DNA of 64,000 nt, taken from positions 1,728,001-1,792,000 of the forward strand of contig CBDBGH010000003.1 of the NCBI GenBank assembly GCA_965205265.1. Direction: 5' to 3'. The notes beneath the pieces are model-generated. The model did no database searches. It saw only the letters and a program-made list of their open reading frames with translations, and was not told the DNA's origin. The position numbers were made by a program, and so were the translations under genes. Within the stretch, counting starts at the first letter, position 1, and every line of letters starts with the position of its first letter. Shown here one piece after another: positions 23,774 to 60,846 of this stretch. The DNA is from Alphaproteobacteria bacterium (GTDB lineage: Bacteria > Pseudomonadota > Alphaproteobacteria > Bin95).

Positions 23774-24163
23774 GGTTCCTGCTCGACGTCTGCGCAGCTT
23801 CGCGAAGCTTGCAGGCAGCGCTGGCGGAACCCATACCAGCGGCGCCGGGTTGCGACACATGGAGAATGCGCCTCGTCGCCTGCCCTCGCGAAAGCGGGGG
23901 GCGCAACGATCCCTTTGTCGTCACCCCGGCCGGAACGGAGCGAAGCGGAGTGGAGAGCCGGGGTCTCCCTGTGGCGTCTCTCCGGCCGCGGGAGGTCCCG
24001 GATCGGCGCTGACGCGCCGTCCGGAACGACGGCAAAGGCTCATGGGTTCTTGCTTGTAGCCGCTGGTACCATAGCGCGGCACGGCGACACGATGATCGAC
24101 GGCGCGATGATCGTCGTATCACGGGATCGGGTGCGGATACGATTCGAACGGGGAAGCGGTTAG
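23770..24163 (+). pseudogene. DUF5615 family PIN-like toxin, disrupted
   Basis: N-terminus MRFLLDVC (GTG overlapping the DUF433 stop) and C-terminus GAMIVVSRDRVRIR lie in different frames, separated by a MITE-like insert; the central part is missing. Confidence 0.7.
23834..24068. mobile_element. MITE-like element carrying REP hairpins
   Basis: Terminal inverted repeats TACCAGCGGC (23834-23843) / GCCGCTGGTA (24059-24068) ending in TA; internal REP-like doublet 23912-24038 and hairpin 23876-23900. Confidence 0.65.
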
Positions 24164-24190: not shown

Positions 24191-25246
24191 TAGAGCATGA
24201 TCTGACCTGATTGAATCGAGGGGGATTCACGGGGCGGAGGATTTGTGATTCAAGATGTCGGCCGGGATGAGGAGGCCGGCTGAGATGTCGAAAGCGCTTT
24301 CCCTTGATCTTCGCAATCGGGTTCTGTCGGCGGTATGTGCGGGCATGAGCCATAGAGCGGCTGGTGCGCGTTTTGGGGTGAGTGCGGCGAGCGTGAGCCG
24401 CTGGCGTGCGCTGGCGCGCGAACAGGGAGACGCGCGCCCGAAGGCGCTTGGCGGGGACCGTCGCTCGGGGCGGATCGAAGCGCAGCGCGATGTGATCCTG
24501 GGTCTTCTTGAGGAGAAGCGGGACATGACCATCGAGGAGTTGCGCGCGGCTCTCGGGGACCGGGGCCTCGCCTTCAGCTACGGGGCGATACAGCGCTTCC
24601 TCGTGCGCCACGCCATCACGCGCAAAAAAAGACCGGCCAGGCGGCGGAGCAGGATCGCCCGGACGTGCTGAGCCGACGGCGCACCTGGCGCGACAGCCAG
24701 CCCGGCCTCGACCCCGACCGGCTGGTGTTCATCGATGAGACAGGGGCCAAGACCAACATGGCCCGCACCCACGGCTGGGCCCCGCGCGGCAAACGTCTGC
24801 GCATGGCCGTCCCTCACGGACACTGGAACACAACCACCTTCGTCGCCGGGCTCACGCCGCGCGGCATGATTGCCCCCTTCGTGCTCTCCGGCGCCATCGA
24901 CCGCGATGCCTTCGAGGCCTACGTCAAAGTGGTCCTCGTCCCCGAACTGAGGCCCGGCGATATCGTCGTCATGGACAACCTCTCAAGCCACAAGGGACCC
25001 AGGGTCCGCAAGATGATCGAAGACGCCGGCGCGCAACTCCTCTTCCTGCCGCCCTATAGTCCTGACTTCAATCCCATCGAACTCGCCTTCGCAAAGCTCA
25101 AGGCAAGGCTACGAAAAGCTGCCGAGAGAACTGTCGACAGCCTCTGGAACACCATCGGACAAATCTCCCAGACCTTCTCACCGCAAGAATGCAAAAACTA
25201 CTTCAATGCCGCAGGATACTCCGCAACATGATCGGATTCCGCTCTA
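24191..25246 (+). mobile_element. IS630 family insertion sequence
   Basis: Imperfect TIRs TAGAGCATGATCTGA / TAGAGCGGAATCCGA (rc), TA at both ends, encloses the transposase. Confidence 0.9.
24285..25231 (+). CDS. IS630 transposase, two ORFs joined by a -1 frameshift
   Basis: ORF1 MSKALSLDLRNRV (HTH). A7 run CGCAAAAAAAGACC at 24621-24634; the -1 frame reads KKTGQAAEQDRPDV...FIDETG...MDNLSSH...LPPYSPDFNPIE. Confidence 0.9.
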
Positions 25247-25266
25247 AGCGACATTTTCGGGAACGC

Positions 25267-25278
25267 TTATCCCCCGTC
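25267..25278 (-). CDS. ppdK: Predicted terminal mini-exon of ppdK (GAC GGG GGA TAA)
   Basis: Follows the intron 3' end directly and gives D-G-G-stop in frame after splicing. Confidence 0.7.
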   Translation of the reverse strand, partial: DGG

Positions 25279-27208
25279 ATCGCGGTAGGGACGCCGGTTG
25301 CCCGGCGCCCCCCGCACAGATCCGGACGTGCCCGCTAAGGCATCCGGCTCCTCCCTCGGGTTGCGCTGTTCCCATACACGCTGACGGCAAGTCGTCGGTT
25401 CGGCCACGGGTGCCGGATTTCCACCTTGGGCCAGTACTTGGTCGTCAACTTGTCGACCTGTGCCCAGCCGAAGCGGTCCCGTTGCGATCTGCGGCGCGTG
25501 ATCGCGATCCACATCCGCTTCAGGCGCGAGGCGAAGCGGCTCAGGTATCGGTGGCTCATCGGGACGGCAAAGTAGTTCAGCCATCCGTCAAGCACCTTGC
25601 CCAGCCACCTCGCCGTTTCTTCGGCGTTGTCATGCATTCGGCTGCATAGCGCTTCCTTTATCCGCTTCAGTGTGCGGGCCATCCGCTCCGCAACCGGCTT
25701 GCGCCCCAACTGGAAACGCCCGCCTCTGGTCTCCGTGCAGTAGTGCGTGAAGCCCAGAAAGTCGAAAGTCTCCGGTTTGCCCTGCCCTCGTCGCCGACGG
25801 TTTCTAGGGGCAAATCGCCCGAACTCGATGAGCCGGGTCTTGTCGGGATGCAGTTCCAGTTCGAAGCTTCCGAACCGCTCCTTCAGGGCATCCAGAAATC
25901 GCTCCGCGTCCTGCTTGTGCTGGAAACCAACCACGAAGTCGTCGGCGTACCGCACGATGATCGCGTCGCCGTAGACCTCGTGGCTGCGCCACTTCTTATG
26001 GAACCAGAGATCGAGGACGTAATGCAGGTAGACGTTCGCCAGGATCGGCGAAATCACCGATCCCTGCGGGGTCCCCCGCAGGTCGTCCCGCCTCTCTCCA
26101 TCTTCCATGACGCCGGCGTTCAGCCACTTGATGATCAGCCTGATGACCCGCTTGTCCGCGATGCGGTGTTCAAGGAACCGGACCAGCCAGTCCCTCGACA
26201 CCGTGTCGAAGAATTTGCGGATGTCGCAATCGACCACCCAGTTGATCTTGAACTTGTCGATGCCGACCGCGATCGCATCGAGCGCATTGTGCGCCCCACG
26301 ACCGGGCCGGAACCCGTAGCTGAACCCCAGGAACTCCGCCTCGTAGATCGGCGTCAGGATTATCTCCGCCACGACCTTCTGGACGATCTTGTCCTCGATG
26401 GCCGCGACGCCGAGCGGTCGTGTACCGCCATCCGGCTTCGGGATGTTCACCCGTCGCGATGGCGTCGCCCGGTACGCTCCCGAATGCACGCGGTCGTGCA
26501 GGTCGGCCAAGCGGCCTTCCAGTTCCTTCCCGTACATCCGCCACGTCATGCCATCCGCGCCCGCCGCCGCGTTCTTCTTTAGCTCGAAGAACGCCCAGCG
26601 AAGCGCATCGACCGTGACATGGTGAAGGAGCGTCGTGAGACGCACCTTGCGTTCCCTTTGTACAAACTGCCGTATCCGGTCGGCCGCCTGTGACACGCTT
26701 TCCCGGTTCTGCGTCCGGCGCGTGCTTTGGCCTTCCGGATTCCCCTTGGGCTCGGCCCTTGGCTCCACCGGCTCCGCCGAGGCTGACGCCCCTTTGTTCG
26801 CCGGCTTCACGGCTACTATGGCCGAGTCTGACTTCTCCATGCCGTTCATCATCGGTTACGGACTACTCCTTTCCTTTGCGATCCTGCCACGACAGCGGGA
26901 TGGCATGGAGACCTCCCAGGTCCCGGTGCAGTGCTTACGTACGTGCATGGGTTCTTGGACACCGCGGGACTCCGACCCCCCTCGCCATAACGGTGGGTCG
27001 GATGCTGCCTTCGACCGAGGAAAAGGTCTCGGCATCCCGGACTAAGGATCTTTCGGTGCTCGATAGCCCTGTCCGCACGCGCCCCTGTCAACGCTTGACC
27101 CCCGCCCTCGCGAGCGACGGCCCATGACTCGGGGTGGAAGTGGTGGCTCACCTTCTCCTTCCTGCCGGACTTTCACCGGCTACACTGGCACCAGTTAGCC
27201 TGGCGCAC
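25279..27208 (-). mobile_element. Group II intron (1930 nt)
   Basis: 5' GTGCG at 27208; domain V GAGCCGGATGCCTTAGCGGGCACGTCCGGATCTG; domain VI ending CCCTACCGCGAT; EBS1 UUCCUC complementary to exon end GAGGGA. Confidence 0.95.
25335..26852 (-). CDS. ltrA: Group II intron reverse transcriptase/maturase (no HNH endonuclease seen)
   Basis: IPKPDG..RPLG, SYGFRPGR, D..KFFD, GTPQGS.ISP.LAN.YL, RYADD, FDFLGF, domain X GW.NYF. Confidence 0.95.
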   Translation of the reverse strand: MMNGMEKSDSAIVAVKPANKGASASAEPVEPRAEPKGNPEGQSTRRTQNRESVSQAADRIRQFVQRERKVRLTTLLHHVTVDALRWAFFELKKNAAAGADGMTWRMYGKELEGRLADLHDRVHSGAYRATPSRRVNIPKPDGGTRPLGVAAIEDKIVQKVVAEIILTPIYEAEFLGFSYGFRPGRGAHNALDAIAVGIDKFKINWVVDCDIRKFFDTVSRDWLVRFLEHRIADKRVIRLIIKWLNAGVMEDGERRDDLRGTPQGSVISPILANVYLHYVLDLWFHKKWRSHEVYGDAIIVRYADDFVVGFQHKQDAERFLDALKERFGSFELELHPDKTRLIEFGRFAPRNRRRRGQGKPETFDFLGFTHYCTETRGGRFQLGRKPVAERMARTLKRIKEALCSRMHDNAEETARWLGKVLDGWLNYFAVPMSHRYLSRFASRLKRMWIAITRRRSQRDRFGWAQVDKLTTKYWPKVEIRHPWPNRRLAVSVYGNSATRGRSRMP

Positions 27209-29860
27209 TCCCTCCTTCCTCCCCGCCAGCGCCGCCTGGGCGGCGGCGAGGCGGGCTATGGGGACGCGGTAGGGGGAGCAGGAGACGTAGTCCAGCCCGA
27301 TTTCGTGGCAGAAGGCGACCGAGGCCGGGTCGCCGCCATGCTCGCCGCAAATGCCGAGCTTGAGGTCCGGGCGCGCGGCCCGGCCGCGTTCGGCGGCGAT
27401 GCGCACCAGCTCGCCCACGCCCTCGATGTCCAGCGTCTCGAACGGGTCGCTCGCCAGGATGCCGCCGTCGCGGTAGGCGCCGAGGAAGGAGCCGGCGTCG
27501 TCGCGCGAAATGCCGAAGGCGGTCTGCGTCAGGTCGTTGGTGCCGAAGGAGAAGAACTCGGCGGCGGCGGCGATCTCGGCGGCCCTGAGCGCGGCGCGCG
27601 GCAGCTCGATCATCGTGCCGGTGCTCCAGACAAGCGCCTTGCCCGTCTCTTCCGCCACCGTCGCCGCCGTCCGGTCGATGACGGCCCTGATGCGCTCCAG
27701 CTCGCTGCCCGCTGCGACCAGCGGCACCATGACTTCGGGCTCGGCGCCGGTTTCGGCAGCGGCCTCGAAGATCGCGCGGGCCTGCATCTCGTAAATTTCG
27801 GGCCATGTGATGCCGAGCCGGCAGCCGCGGTGGCCGAGCATCGGGTTCGCTTCCTCCAACCGGAGCGCCCGGCGGCGCAGCTTGACCGCATCGACGCCGG
27901 CCGCCTCGGCCACCTCGGCGGTCTCCTCCTCGGTGCGCGGCAGGAATTCGTGCAGCGGCGGGTCCAGCAGCCGGATCGTCACCGGCAGGCCGTCCATGAT
28001 CCGGAACAGCTCAACAAAATCCCGGCGCTGCATCGGCAGCAGCTTTGCGAGCGCGGCGCGGCGCCCGGCCTCGTCGTCGGCCAGGATCATCTCGCGCATG
28101 GCGAGGATGCGGCCCGCGTCGAAGAACATGTGCTCCGTGCGGCAGAGCCCGATGCCCTCGGCGCCGAAGGCGCGTGCGGCTTCGGCGTCGCGGGGCGTCT
28201 CGGCATTGGCGCGCACCCGGAGCCGCCGCACCCCGTCCGCCCATTCCATCAGCCGCGCGAACCCGCCGGTCACTTCCGGTTGGATGGTCGCGATCTCGCC
28301 CGCCATCACCTCGCCGGTGCCGCCGTCTATGGTGATCCGGTCTTCGGTCGTGAAGGTCCGCCCATTGGCGAGCATGACGCCGTCTTCGACATCGATCCGG
28401 ACTGCGCCCGCGCCTGAAACGCAGGCCCGCCCCATGCCGCGCGCGACCACCGCCGCATGGCTCGTCATGCCGCCGCGCGAGGTCAGGATGCCGCGCGCGG
28501 CGTGCATGCCGTGGATATCCTCGGGGCTGGTCTCGCTGCGCACCAGGATGACCGCCTCGCCATTCGCCGCCGCCTGCTCGGCGGCGTCGGCGGTGAAGAC
28601 GATCCGGCCGGACGCGGCGCCGGGCGAGGCCGGCAGGCCGCGCGCAATCACATCGCGCTCCGCCTCGGGGTCGAGTGTGGGATGCAGGAGTTGCTCCAGC
28701 GCCTGCGGCTCGATCCGCATGACCGCCTCTTCCGGCCCGATGGTCCCGTCCTCCACCAGATCGACGGCGATCTGCAGCGCGGCCTGGGCCGTGCGCTTGC
28801 CCGAGCGCGTCTGGAGCATCCAGAGCCGGCCGGTCTCGACCGTGAACTCGATGTCCTGCATATCGCGGAAATGACGCTCCAGCCGGTCGCGCATCTCCAT
28901 GAGCCGGGCGAACGCTTCCGGCATGGCGCGCTCCATCGGCGGCAGGCTCGAGCCGCGCGCCTCCGCTTCCGCCGCCGTCAGGCTTTGCGGCGTGCGGATG
29001 CCGGCCACCACGTCCTCGCCCTGGGCGTTGACCAGGTATTCCCCGTAAAGCGCATTCTCGCCGGTGGAGGGGTTGCGGGTGAAGGCGACGCCGGTGGCAC
29101 AGTCCGCGCCCATATTGCCGAACACCATGGCCTGCACATTGACGCCCGTGCCCCACTCCTCGGGGATGCCGTGCAGGCGGCGATAGGTCTGCGCGCGCGG
29201 CGTCTGCCAGCTTCGCATCACGGCGCCGATGGCCTCCCAAAGCTGGGCGCGCGGCTCCTGCGGGAAGGGCGCGCCGGTCTCCTCCAGCACGATCTCCTTG
29301 AAGCGGGCGACGAGGCCGCTCCAGTCATCGGCATCGAGATCGGCGTCGGCATCCACGCCTTTCTCGTCTTTCAGAATCTCGATTTCTTCCTCGAACAGCC
29401 CGCGGTCCACGCCGAGCGCCACATCGGCGAACATCTGCACGAAGCGGCGGTAACTGTCGAAAGCGAAGCGCCGGTCGCCGGAGCTCGCCGCCAGCGCCTC
29501 CACCGTCCGGTCGTTCAGGCCGAGATTGAGCACCGTGTCCATCATGCCGGGCATGGAGACCCTGGCGCCCGAGCGCACGGAAACCAGAAGCGGGTCCGCC
29601 TCGCCGCCGAAGCGCCTGCCGACGGCCGCTTCCACTTCCGCCAAAGCCGCCTCGACCTGCTCCTCCAGCCCCTCCGGATAGCGTTCGCCATCGGCATAGA
29701 AGCGGGTGCAAACCTCCGTGGTGACGGTGAAACCCGGCGGCACCGGCAGGCCGAGCCGCGCCATCTCCGCGAGATTGGCGCCCTTGCCGCCGAGCAGCGC
29801 GCTCATCTCCGCGCGCCCTTCGGTCCGCCCGCCCCCGAAGGCGTAAACCCAACGGGTCAT
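27173..29860 (-). CDS. ppdK: Pyruvate, phosphate dikinase (the last 11 codons of this ORF are intron-derived; exon 1 ends at 27209)
   Basis: LGGKGANLAEM, GEDVVAGIRTP, GGMTSHAAVVARG, GLCRTEHMF, GICGEHGG. Confidence 0.97.
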   Translation of the reverse strand: MTRWVYAFGGGRTEGRAEMSALLGGKGANLAEMARLGLPVPPGFTVTTEVCTRFYADGERYPEGLEEQVEAALAEVEAAVGRRFGGEADPLLVSVRSGARVSMPGMMDTVLNLGLNDRTVEALAASSGDRRFAFDSYRRFVQMFADVALGVDRGLFEEEIEILKDEKGVDADADLDADDWSGLVARFKEIVLEETGAPFPQEPRAQLWEAIGAVMRSWQTPRAQTYRRLHGIPEEWGTGVNVQAMVFGNMGADCATGVAFTRNPSTGENALYGEYLVNAQGEDVVAGIRTPQSLTAAEAEARGSSLPPMERAMPEAFARLMEMRDRLERHFRDMQDIEFTVETGRLWMLQTRSGKRTAQAALQIAVDLVEDGTIGPEEAVMRIEPQALEQLLHPTLDPEAERDVIARGLPASPGAASGRIVFTADAAEQAAANGEAVILVRSETSPEDIHGMHAARGILTSRGGMTSHAAVVARGMGRACVSGAGAVRIDVEDGVMLANGRTFTTEDRITIDGGTGEVMAGEIATIQPEVTGGFARLMEWADGVRRLRVRANAETPRDAEAARAFGAEGIGLCRTEHMFFDAGRILAMREMILADDEAGRRAALAKLLPMQRRDFVELFRIMDGLPVTIRLLDPPLHEFLPRTEEETAEVAEAAGVDAVKLRRRALRLEEANPMLGHRGCRLGITWPEIYEMQARAIFEAAAETGAEPEVMVPLVAAGSELERIRAVIDRTAATVAEETGKALVWSTGTMIELPRAALRAAEIAAAAEFFSFGTNDLTQTAFGISRDDAGSFLGAYRDGGILASDPFETLDIEGVGELVRIAAERGRAARPDLKLGICGEHGGDPASVAFCHEIGLDYVSCSPYRVPIARLAAAQAALAGRKEGVRQANWCQCSR

Positions 29861-29863
29861 CGA

Positions 29864-31915
29864 TCAGCCCTCTATCCGGGAGAAGTCCGCAACGCCTGCG
29901 GTCGCAGCCCGGATGCCGGCGAGCAGCCGGAGCCGGTTGGCCCGAAGCGCGGCGTCCGCTGCATTGACCGTCACCTCGTCGAAGAACCGGTCCACCGGCG
30001 CGCGCAATGTCGCCAGCGCCCGGGTCGCGGCGGAGAAGTCCTCAGCCTCGACCGCGCGGGAGGCCGCCGCGCCTGCCCTGCCCAGCGCCTCATGCAGGGC
30101 GCGTTCCGCCTCGACGGCAAAGGCGGACGGGTCGGCGTCGACGCCGTAGGAGGTGCTGTCCTTCTTCTCCTCTATGGCGAGGATGCTGCCGGCGCGCTTG
30201 TAGGCGGTCAGCAGGTTCGCGCCGTCCTCTTCGTCCACGAAGCGTTCGAGAAAGGCGACGCGGGCCATCAGCCGTGTCAGGTCGTCCTCATTGCCGAGCG
30301 CGAAGACGGCGGATACAAGGTCTTGCCTTGCGCCGCGCTCGCGCAGATGCGCCTTCAACCGGTCCTCGAAAAAGGCGAACAGCGTCTCGCCGCCCTCATC
30401 CGTTCCGTAGCTTTCCAGCGCCGCCGCAATCGCGGGACGCAGCGGCAGGCGCAGGCCGTTTTCCAGCACGATGCGCACGATGCCGAGTGCGGCGCGGCGG
30501 AGCGCGAACGGGTCGCGCGATCCCGTCGGGCGCTCGTCGATAGAGAAGAAGCCGGCCAGCGTGTCGAACTTGTCGGCGAGGGCGGCGACGATTGACACCG
30601 GATCGGCCGGCACCGAATCGCTAGGCCCCTGTGGCCTGTAGTGTTCTGCCAGCGCGTTGGCTATGTCGGCGCCCTGCCCCTCCTCTAACGCATAGTAGCG
30701 GCCCATGACGCCCTGCAATTCGGGGAACTCGCCGACCATCCCGGTCACGAGGTCGGCCTTGGCAAGACGCACCGCCTGGCGGCAGCGCGCAGCGTCGGCG
30801 CCGGGAACGAAGGGCGCCAGCTTGTCCGCCAGACGCTCCAGCCGCCGGACCTTGTCGCCCACGCTTCCCAGCTTTGCGTGAAACACCACCTTGTCGAGCG
30901 CCGGCAGGCGGTCTTCCAGCCGGCGCATCCGGTCCTGATCCCAGAAGAACCGGGCGTCGGCGAGACGCGCGCGCAGCACGCGCTCATTGCCGGCGCGGAC
31001 CGCCGCATTGCCGTCGGGCGCCTCAATATTGGCGACGAACAGGAAGCGCGGCGCGAGCCCGCCCGCCTCGTCCTCCACCGGGAAATAGCGCTGATGCGAC
31101 TCCATGCTCGTCATCAGCACTTCGGGCGGCAGTTCCAGAAAGGCCGGGTCGAAATCTCCGACGCCGGGCACCGGCCATTCGGTGAGGCCCGCATTCTCGG
31201 ACAGCAGGCGTTCCGAAAGGCGAACGCCCTCCGGCGCGCTCTCGCGGATACGCTGTACGCGTTCTTCTACATCGATCAGTACGAAGGCCGCCCGCAGCTT
31301 CGCCTCGTAATCCGCGAATCCGGTGACGGCGAACGGTTCCGGCGCCATGAAGCGATGGCCCTGCGTGCGATTCGAGAAATCGAGCCGCGCTTCCGTGCCG
31401 CCGATCTCGATGCCGCCGGGCAGCGCCTCGCCTCCGAAGACGGCCAGCACGTCCCGCAGCGGGCGCACATAGCGCATCGGCGCATCGCCCCAGCGCATGG
31501 ATTTCGGCCAGGCAAGACCGCCCACCGCATCCGCCACGATCTCCGCCAGCACTTCGCGCGCCGGACGGCCGGGCACGCGGCGCACGGCGAACCAGAACTC
31601 GGCCTTGCCCTGCTGCCGGCGCTCGCAGTCCTCCAGGCTTGCGAGGCCGGCCGCCTTCAGGAAGCCCTCGACAGCCCGGTCCGGCGCGCCGACGCGCGGG
31701 CCCTTGCGCTCCTCGATGCGGTCGGGCTGGCGCTCCGGCAGGCCCTCGACGACCAGCGCGATCCGGCGCGGGGTGGCGAAGGCGCGCGAGGCTCCGTGCG
31801 CGAGCTCCGCCTGCTTCAGCCCCTCCAGCACGAGGCATTCGAAATCGCGCCGCGCGCGGTCCTGCATCCGCGCCGGGATTTCCTCCGACAGCAATTCGAC
31901 GAGCAGTTCGCTCAT
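29864..31915 (-). CDS. glyS: Glycine--tRNA ligase beta subunit
   Basis: [54 protein letters not shown]. Confidence 0.96.
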
Positions 31916-32790
31916 AGCGCCGCCGCGTCCAGGTGGCCGCGCGAGCGGAGCCAGACGCCGGCCGAAGCGCGCGCGAGCGTCCTGACCCGCCCGATATAGG
32001 CCGCCCGCTCCGTCACGCTCACCACGCCGCGCGCATCCAGCATGTTGAAGGCGTGGCTCGCCAGGATGCACTGGTCATAGGCCGGCAGCGCCAGCCCCGC
32101 CTCCACCAGCGCCGCGCATTCGCGCTCGGCGTCGGAGAAATGGCGGAAGAGCACGTCCGTGTCCGCATGCTCGAAATTGTAGGCCGAGAACTCCCGCTCG
32201 GCCTGATGGAAGACATCGCCGTAGGAGAGGCCTGCGCCGTTGAAGTCGAGGTCGTACACATTCTCGACCCCCTGCACATACATGGCGAGGCGTTCCAGCC
32301 CATAGGTGATCTCGCCCGAGACCGGGTTGCAATCGTAGCCGCCCACCTGCTGGAAATAGGTGAACTGGCTCACCTCCATACCGTCGCACCAGATCTCCCA
32401 GCCGAGGCCCCAGGCGCCGAGCGTCGGGCTCTCCCAGTCGTCCTCGACGAGGCGCAGGTCGTGCTCGCGCGAATCGATGCCGATTTCCGCAAGCGAGGCG
32501 AAATAAAGGTCCAGTATGTCCGGCGGGCTCGGCTTCAGCAGCACCTGGAACTGGTAGTAGTGCTGGAGCCGGTTGGGGTTCTCGCCATAGCGCCCGTCGG
32601 TCGGGCGGCGCGACGGCTGCACATAGGCGGCGCGCCACGGCTCCGGCCCGAGCGAGCGCAAGGTCGTCGCCGGATGGAACGTGCCGGCCCCCACCTGCAT
32701 GTCGTAGGGCTGCAGCACGGCGCAACCCTCGCCCGCCCAGAAGCGCTGGAGCGCCAGGATCAGTTCCTGGAAGCTCGGCGCGGCTGTCAT
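31912..32790 (-). CDS. glyQ: Glycine--tRNA ligase alpha subunit
   Basis: [47 protein letters not shown]. Confidence 0.98.
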
Positions 32791-59953: not shown

Positions 59954-60846
59954 GCCACGTTCCTCCCCGCCCCGTTTGCGCGCTCTTCGGCGTAGCCGGC
60001 AAGGCGGTCGATCAGTTGCGCGAGATCGGCCTGGACCGACGCGAAATCCGGGCGCGGACGGCGGGTCGCCTCGTCGATATAGAGGGCCTTGTTGATCTCG
60101 ATCTGGAGGCTGTGGCGGCCGGCATCCGGGGCCGAGAAGGCGCGGACGAGCTCCACGCCCTTGAAGATGTGGTTGGTCCGCACCTTGTAGCCGAGCCCGC
60201 GCAGCACCTCGGCGGCGAAGGCGGTGAAACCCGCCTCGCAGGTCGTGCCGTCGCGGTCGCCGAGCACCATATCCGGCCGCAGGGTCGTGTCCTCGCGGCT
60301 CCGCGAGCCCATGGAATGGCAGTTCAGGTGATAGACCGCGCTGAAGCGCTCCATCAGCCTGTCCAGCGCCTTGCCGAGCGCGCGGTGGTAGGGCTCGTGG
60401 TAGCGGCGGATGCGCGCCTGCACCTCCTCGACGCCGAGCCGGCGGTCGTAAAGCGCCCTGTCGTCCTCGCCGATGGTGCGCCGGATGAGCCCGATGCCGC
60501 GCCGGGTCTTCTCGGTCGGCGCGAGCGGATCGGGCCAGTACCCGTCGATAAGCCGGGCGTCGAGGTCGTCCACGGCGCGGTTCGGGTCGATATAGGTGCG
60601 CGGGAAATGCGCCTTGAGCAGCGCCGCGCCCAGCCTCGGCCCGTCGCCGAACAGCTCGTCCACCGCCGTGTCCACGGCGTCGAGCAGGGTGGCCCGGTCC
60701 ACCGCCGCATCGAAATCGGCGGGGTAATCGGTGCCGCTGTGGGGCGAGTCCAGCACCAGCGGCCTCACCGGGCCGGAGGGCCCTTGCATGGTCAGCACAC
60801 CGGGCAGCGTGTAGGTCGGGATCAAGGGCCGGCGTTCCTTCGGCAT
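59950..60846 (-). CDS. N-formylglutamate amidohydrolase
   Basis: DSPHSG..YP, D..VD.LF, R.Y.DPNR, Y..PYH, CHSM, LGDR.G, QIEIN..LY; start uncertain. Confidence 0.88.
   Translation of the reverse strand: MPKERRPLIPTYTLPGVLTMQGPSGPVRPLVLDSPHSGTDYPADFDAAVDRATLLDAVDTAVDELFGDGPRLGAALLKAHFPRTYIDPNRAVDDLDARLIDGYWPDPLAPTEKTRRGIGLIRRTIGEDDRALYDRRLGVEEVQARIRRYHEPYHRALGKALDRLMERFSAVYHLNCHSMGSRSREDTTLRPDMVLGDRDGTTCEAGFTAFAAEVLRGLGYKVRTNHIFKGVELVRAFSAPDAGRHSLQIEINKALYIDEATRRPRPDFASVQADLAQLIDRLAGYAEERANGAGRNVA

Follow-up and report, generated by a model that had tools for sequence, protein, structure and literature searches.

What is a mobile group II intron doing three codons before the stop of ppdK, a core metabolic gene, and does the protein depend on its removal? 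The locus lies in a 64,000-nucleotide stretch, here called the window, of contig CBDBGH010000003.1 in the Alphaproteobacteria bacterium assembly GCA_965205265.1 (positions 1,728,001 to 1,792,000 of the forward strand); coordinates are those of the window unless another contig is named. An earlier note, made from the sequence alone, had placed a group II intron inside the last codons of ppdK. It read from this placement two alternative C-termini, a nearly neutral site, a ride on the glyQ-glyS-ppdK transcript and a splice-dependent tail with a Cys-X-Cys motif. The analysis bears out the borders and both predicted ends. Its best explanation, held as quite probable, is that a recently multiplied intron made an off-target insertion in ppdK and is tolerated there as a near-neutral passenger.

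The minus strand of the window from 27208 to 25279 carries a complete group II intron of 1930 nt, made up as follows.

25279..27208, minus strand: group II intron, by direct reading and Rfam, with borders from five genomic copies and the empty site of a congener, G012
26950..27173, minus strand: 5' part of the ribozyme matched by RF02005 (171.5 bits, full model)
25279..25352, minus strand: domains V and VI, by RF00029 (34 bits; gathering score 40) and direct reading, with a bulged A at 25286
25335..26852, minus strand: intron-encoded protein (IEP), a reverse transcriptase-maturase of 505 aa with RVT_1, GIIM and a YADD motif and no endonuclease domain

The termini, GUGCG at 27208 and ...CCCTACCGCGAT / GAU at 25279, fit the pattern GUGYG...AY and are the same in all five genomic copies. 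RF02005 (group-II-D1D4-6) is matched over its whole length (model positions 1-225 of 225, window 27173..26950) against a gathering score of 49, the match opening at intron nt 36. RF00029 is matched over model positions 1-77 (E 2.6e-4), and the last matched base is the last base of the intron. Direct reading finds the AGC of domain V and places the bulged A of domain VI 7 nt before the 3' splice site.

The IEP begins after 356 nt of intron and carries RVT_1 (1.9e-36, residues 137-369) followed by the maturase X domain GIIM (1e-5, residues 393-463). It is read as having no DNA-binding or endonuclease (En) part, that is as En-minus, because just 42 residues follow GIIM; Pfam gives no HNH match. 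The element is an endonuclease-less, IIB-like mobile group II intron, and the comparisons made do not assign it to class D, E or F. The hairpin or terminator that precedes class C (IIC) insertions was looked for, and no stem-loop adjoins the junction in the five 5' exons, which carry a purine-rich run instead. A terminator scan returned 7 terminator-like sites (shuffled sequence gave 5.6 +/- 2.4), none of them at the ppdK end, and a promoter scan returned 0 promoter-like sites. The TAG stop of the IEP (25335..25337) falls in the terminal loop of domain V; a TAG or TAA stands at the same position in four of the five related introns with an aligned loop, their reading frame being unchecked.

The borders are fixed by comparison within the genome and beyond it. 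The genome, which is in three contigs, has five copies of the intron, in ppdK and at four further sites (A to D); their similarity begins precisely at GTGCG and stops at CGCGAT, with divergent flanks. The copies in ppdK, A, B and C are identical over all 1930 nt, which implies that the intron moved recently. Copy D differs by one substitution and a deletion of 5 nt at intron nt 1588-1594; its IEP is cut to 419 codons (L031 3357..4616), and it would rely on the protein of the other copies. When the intron and a neighbouring insertion sequence (IS) are removed in silico, the window sequence that remains there aligns unbroken to the uninterrupted G012 allele at 439 of 468 positions. The intron is confirmed at this place, far beyond chance, and its borders are exactly those first proposed.

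A survey of related genomes bears on the age of the insertion. Matches were obtained in 40 of 41 related genomes and gave 30 ppdK loci, ten further matches being without loci and their gene ends unread. In none of the 29 relatives read (28 plus genome G006) is the end of ppdK interrupted. Some match to the intron occurs in 13 of 37 family genomes, the best outside the genome itself at 85%. The 22 nt across the exon-intron junction were not matched exactly anywhere in genome or metagenome contig collections, which possibly do not include the present genome. These comparisons make the insertion a young one and, within the collections searched, restrict it to the present organism. A replication-strand bias is expected of En-minus introns; relative to the replication fork, three of the five copies (ppdK, B and C) are co-directional and two (A and D) head-on, read from a noisy cumulative GC (guanine-cytosine) skew curve with its minimum near 4.35 Mb and a turning point near 1.45 Mb of contig C3.

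The consequences for PpdK follow from three further features.

27209..29860, minus strand: ppdK exon 1, 884 codons, ending ...AGRKEG, by Pfam and identity to congeners
25267..25278, minus strand: ppdK exon 2, DGG-stop, homologous to congener GGA TAG GCG / GAA TAG GCGTTCC
27173..27175, minus strand: TGA in intron domain I, the stop on unspliced RNA, within the conserved GGUGAAAGUCC

Exon 1 ends ...GCG GGG AGG AAG GAG GGA directly before the GTGCG of the intron, so that the border is a codon boundary, and exon 2 reads GAC GGG GGA TAA, which puts the intron nine bases before the stop. Spliced RNA is predicted to give ...AGRKEG-DGG* and unspliced RNA ...AGRKEG-VRQANWCQCSR* (AGRKEGVRQANWCQCSR; C-terminal peptide ...KEGVRQANWCQCSR); both ends had been read correctly. 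The present open reading frame (27173..29860, 895 aa) is the read-through form with its 11 intron codons, and in a public protein collection this form stands as a singleton cluster. The enzyme has the Pfam domains PPDK_N, PEP-utilizers and PEP-utilizers_C, the catalytic PEP-utilizers_C ending at residue 876 of 895, and the last 331 aa of PpdK are 87-95% identical to congeners.

The end of ppdK beyond these domains is variable among relatives. The closest congeners finish ...GAA GAG GGA TAG GCG, G006 finishes ...GAA TAG GCGTTCC and the window reads GGA TAA GCGTTCC; the downstream TAA is the native ppdK stop, the congener stop and its flank being homologous at the same place. The expectation that intron-free relatives would end in GACGGGGGATAA therefore holds for the homology of stop and flank and not letter for letter, the tail being hypervariable. 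After the conserved RLAAAQA, the tails of 28 relatives run to 4-28 residues with no conserved sequence, and those of the spliced and unspliced forms here to 11 and 19. In G012 (L004, C3 about 59990-60080) the usual TAG is passed out of frame, with a 28-residue tail and an open frame of 922 aa against 887-889 in close relatives; this is the same PpdK tail, varied naturally by a frameshift. Because the catalytic domain is kept whole and both tails lie within the natural length range, either form should be tolerated, and the proposal of a nearly neutral site is well supported.

How the intron came to this site is suggested by its base pairing with the exon, in which the following features take part.

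27017..27022, minus strand: exon-binding site 1 (EBS1) UUCCUC, pairing with intron-binding site 1 (IBS1) of five sites (4 to 6 of 6 positions), with covariation in 4 relatives
27209..27214, minus strand: IBS1 GAGGGA, the last 6 nt of exon 1, with six EBS1 pairs, one of them U-G
27216..27221, minus strand: GAGGAA, a possible decoy, being a perfect EBS1 complement
27044..27048, minus strand: tentative EBS2 UCCUU in an asymmetric internal loop, pairing with GAGGA at -13..-9

EBS1 lies in a domain I hairpin loop (intron nt 187-192). Its identity is established from sequence covariation, because in four related introns of other genomes the loop and the 5' exon change together (UUUGAU/GUCGAA, UACGAU/AUCGUA, ACCAGC/GUUGGU and GGGAUG/CAUCCC). 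It forms six Watson-Crick pairs with the GAGGAA of copy D, six pairs including one G-U with the GAGGGA shared by ppdK and copy A, and likewise one G-U with the GGGGAA of copy C; with the CCGGGA of copy B just four of the six positions pair. All five 5' exons are purine-rich and Shine-Dalgarno-like.

The other sites point to a home for the element. The 5' exon of copy D is the N-terminal part of an integrase (Arm-DNA-bind_3, Phage_int_M) and the 3' exon of copy A is a catalytic Phage_integrase part. Because both align to the same uninterrupted paralogous integrases exactly one codon apart (for example C3 2742012-2742443 and 2742447-2743133), the two exons are read as halves of one tyrosine integrase type split at the same point. 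With its perfect IBS1 GAGGAA, the integrase site is the apparent cognate homing target; the ppdK site looks like an ectopic match to a purine-rich sequence resembling it. The two halves lie 1.77 Mb apart (C3 2549750-2550181 for copy D, L031, and 4324648-4325334 for copy A, L032), and tandem integrase genes flank both; the arrangement suggests that intron copies recombined or that each site lost its other half. Copy C (L034, C3 4839925-4843165) is a sense insertion in a DUF350-repeat gene upstream of a spermidine-synthase-like gene, and that host gene, unlike ppdK, needs splicing to be whole. The idea that the gene end was a chosen site finds no support here: ppdK is one of five sites, and the others are mid-gene (integrase, DUF350).

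These observations combine into a simple course of events. The En-minus intron would have multiplied in the genome and inserted ectopically, in sense orientation, where the end of ppdK codes for the tail and is purine-rich and hypervariable. The ...GAGGAAGGAGGGA of ppdK would have been targeted through its likeness to the cognate ...AGGAGGTGAGGAA in the integrase gene, read mainly via EBS1. Transcribed with ppdK, the intron would give the AGRKEGDGG end if spliced in vivo and the AGRKEGVRQANWCQCSR end if not, with a whole catalytic domain either way.

Several points weigh against this account. The RF00029 score for domains V and VI is under the Rfam gathering score, and in the catalytic triad of domain V a G-A mismatch replaces the G-U wobble that is usual there. 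This mismatch arises from the GGAUC 3' strand present in 7 of 7 aligned domains V and, because all seven aligned relatives share it, looks lineage-typical rather than a defect. EBS2 is tentative, as complement searching finds the UCCUU loop (nt 161-165) suitable for three of five intron types (two of four relatives). The GAGGAA that stands in exon 1 at -13..-8, 7 nt upstream of the junction used, could compete for EBS1 as a decoy and lower splicing. Copy C lies in a cellular gene and copy B in an open reading frame without Pfam match, and the integrase owes its standing as the cognate site to the perfect IBS1 and to general knowledge. As to RNA, a search of public runs found no RNA run holding more than 0.11 of the query words, and splicing at this site is inferred. 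Contigs from runs X3, X4, X6 and X15 show no joint of 25278 to 27209, which says nothing for or against splicing; in the metatranscriptome X15 the intron and the IS are represented just by relatives at 90-95%.

The alternative that survives best, and an unlikely one, is that the intron does not splice at its ectopic site, so that PpdK always carries the intron-coded tail and the intron is a 3' passenger. The G-U pair in the ppdK IBS1, beside the perfect GAGGAA upstream, speaks for it, as do the tentative EBS2 pairing, the end of translation within domain I with ribosomes 36 nt into the ribozyme, and the 895-aa read-through form held by public collections. Against this, the ppdK copy is identical to three others, its IEP, domains V and VI and branch-point A are intact, and six pairs between IBS1 and EBS1 normally suffice; for PpdK the result would in any case be equally near-neutral.

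Far less probable is that the two ends are functional, splice-dependent isoforms, the Cys-X-Cys tail having a metal or redox role or splicing regulating PpdK. Both ends are in frame and leave the enzyme intact, and some introns in bacterial housekeeping genes are reported in PMC12584367 to modulate expression of the host gene by splicing. The 11 codons and their stop, however, belong to conserved ribozyme sequence that occurs in all copies as well as in relatives: the 5' end of domain I keeps GGTGAAAGTCC, stop included, in 10 of 11 aligned related introns. Host open reading frames enter three other copies in a different frame and end at intron +61, the tail region of PpdK is unconserved, and an insertion unique to its own genome among those searched leaves no time for selection. 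The Cys-X-Cys tail to which the earlier note gave meaning, together with its stop, is thus best regarded as accidental, a translated piece of ribozyme; nothing points to selection.

The same slender chance is given to an early gene-terminal lifestyle, independent of the groEL introns of subclass IIB1. Here the anti-Shine-Dalgarno-like loops UUCCUC and UCCUU would steer the intron to purine-rich runs at gene ends, and ribosomes stopping 34-36 nt into domain I would couple ppdK translation to folding or splicing, so that both tail form and mobility would follow translation load.

It is extremely improbable that the intron belongs to the IIB1 lineage itself. The site lies 9 nt before the stop of a core gene, and PMC12584367 describes such a lineage, monophyletic, at housekeeping genes' start or stop codons (Avi.groEL, EcKTE56.groEL) and with a subdomain Ia of 300-700 nt. 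The ppdK intron has no such subdomain, its Rfam match beginning at nt 36 and its IEP after 356 nt, which rules the start/stop-codon lineage out; moreover it has no endonuclease domain, its other copies are mid-gene, and ppdK is unoccupied in every relative examined.

Misplacement of a repeated intron in ppdK by the assembly has practically no likelihood: a five-copy repeat does break short-read contigs, and loose ends at 25279 and 27209 run into the flanks of other copies, but the genome is in three contigs, the exon borders fit EBS1, and independent public-run contigs pass with no mismatch out of ppdK to the intron (27183..27967) and out of the intron to exon 2 and the IS (25217..25306), though over only 26 and 28 intron letters (bar 31).

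The neighbourhood of ppdK adds two features.

29864..32790, minus strand: glyQ and glyS, by Pfam tRNA-synt_2e and tRNA_synt_2f
24191..25246, plus strand: IS630-family IS (DDE_3) of 1056 bp, not part of the intron, with TA on both sides, 32 nt after the 3' splice site

Immediately upstream of ppdK, on the same strand, are glyQ and glyS, the glyS stop standing 3 nt before the ppdK start. This spacing makes it plausible that the intron rides the glyQ-glyS-ppdK transcript, as had been claimed; the gene order is as described, and the co-transcription is likely. The IS630 element carries its transposase in two open reading frames, and in the ppdK 3' flank it is framed by the arms of an 8-bp inverted repeat (TTCCCGAA ... 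TTCGGGAA). The genome has four more full copies of it and a partial one, and the G012 allele is without it. Just past the IS, at 23832..24071, lies a repeat of about 235 bp with five other genomic copies at 82-91% identity.

Related introns elsewhere show some features of their own. The loci L050 (G009 C162), L051, L053 and L062 include a related intron that has another intron copy's domain VI as its site, nested within it. They also include several relatives inserted in CATGACA(Y)(Y)CC, a repeated motif fitting their own EBS1 (GGGAUG/CAUCCC in L062). Matches of 82 nt confined to domains V and VI, 95% identical, number 6 in G006 and 5 in G004, often at contig ends, and are probably the ends of collapsed or 5'-truncated intron copies.

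The ppdK intron alters no current concept and is an ordinary example of a known element type. Its interest is that bacterial group II introns are seldom found in core metabolic genes and that this case is clean and datable: four copies are identical, a sister species has the empty site and EBS1 is defined. It illustrates a route to tolerance, in which a hypervariable tail is hit and the enzyme is complete spliced or unspliced. The locus also offers a natural test bed for splicing efficiency at an ectopic site and for the effect of translating ribosomes on the 5' end of a ribozyme, and it bears on annotation practice, the public protein being the 895-aa read-through form.

Group II introns at the groEL stop codon were reportedly described by Ferat et al. 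and Adamidi et al. in 2003. Like the ppdK intron, Avi.groEL and EcKTE56.groEL, as presented in PMC12584367, are sense-strand introns at the 3' end of a core gene that ride the transcript of the host operon and leave the protein essentially unchanged. They differ in that every member is placed at a start or stop codon and carries subdomain Ia, whereas the ppdK intron is En-less, lies 9 nt before the stop and has its other copies mid-gene; the shared gene-end placement is accidental convergence, not membership. The introns of Geobacillus recA and of Trichodesmium dnaN and RIR, among those described in PMC4424553 and PMC12584367, also lie in sense orientation in cellular genes, but they split essential coding sequence and require splicing, whereas PpdK is complete without it. 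C.te.I1 of Clostridium tetani is likewise a group II intron able to give C-terminal protein isoforms (PMC4424553). It is reported to do so through several 5' splice sites and its isoforms are documented, whereas the ppdK ends are predicted and would come from splicing versus no splicing only.

The closest likeness of habit is to RmInt1 of Sinorhizobium meliloti and the En-minus IIB-like introns of classes D, E and F. According to PMC4424553, bacterial group II introns are mostly located outside housekeeping genes, the endonuclease is missing from classes C, D, E and F, and ectopic insertion is established behaviour of En-minus introns; PMC3522654 reports retrotransposition into ectopic sites whose IBS motifs are imperfect. 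Among plasmid-borne IEPs, the closest by tblastn share only 58% (Skermanella) and 51% (Klebsiella) identity with that of the ppdK intron. As RmInt1 and its kin are portrayed in PMC4424553, PMC3552965 and PMC1802570, they share with the ppdK intron an alphaproteobacterial host, a reverse transcriptase-maturase without the DNA-binding/endonuclease part, a cognate site in a mobile-element gene, several near-identical copies and occasional ectopic sites.

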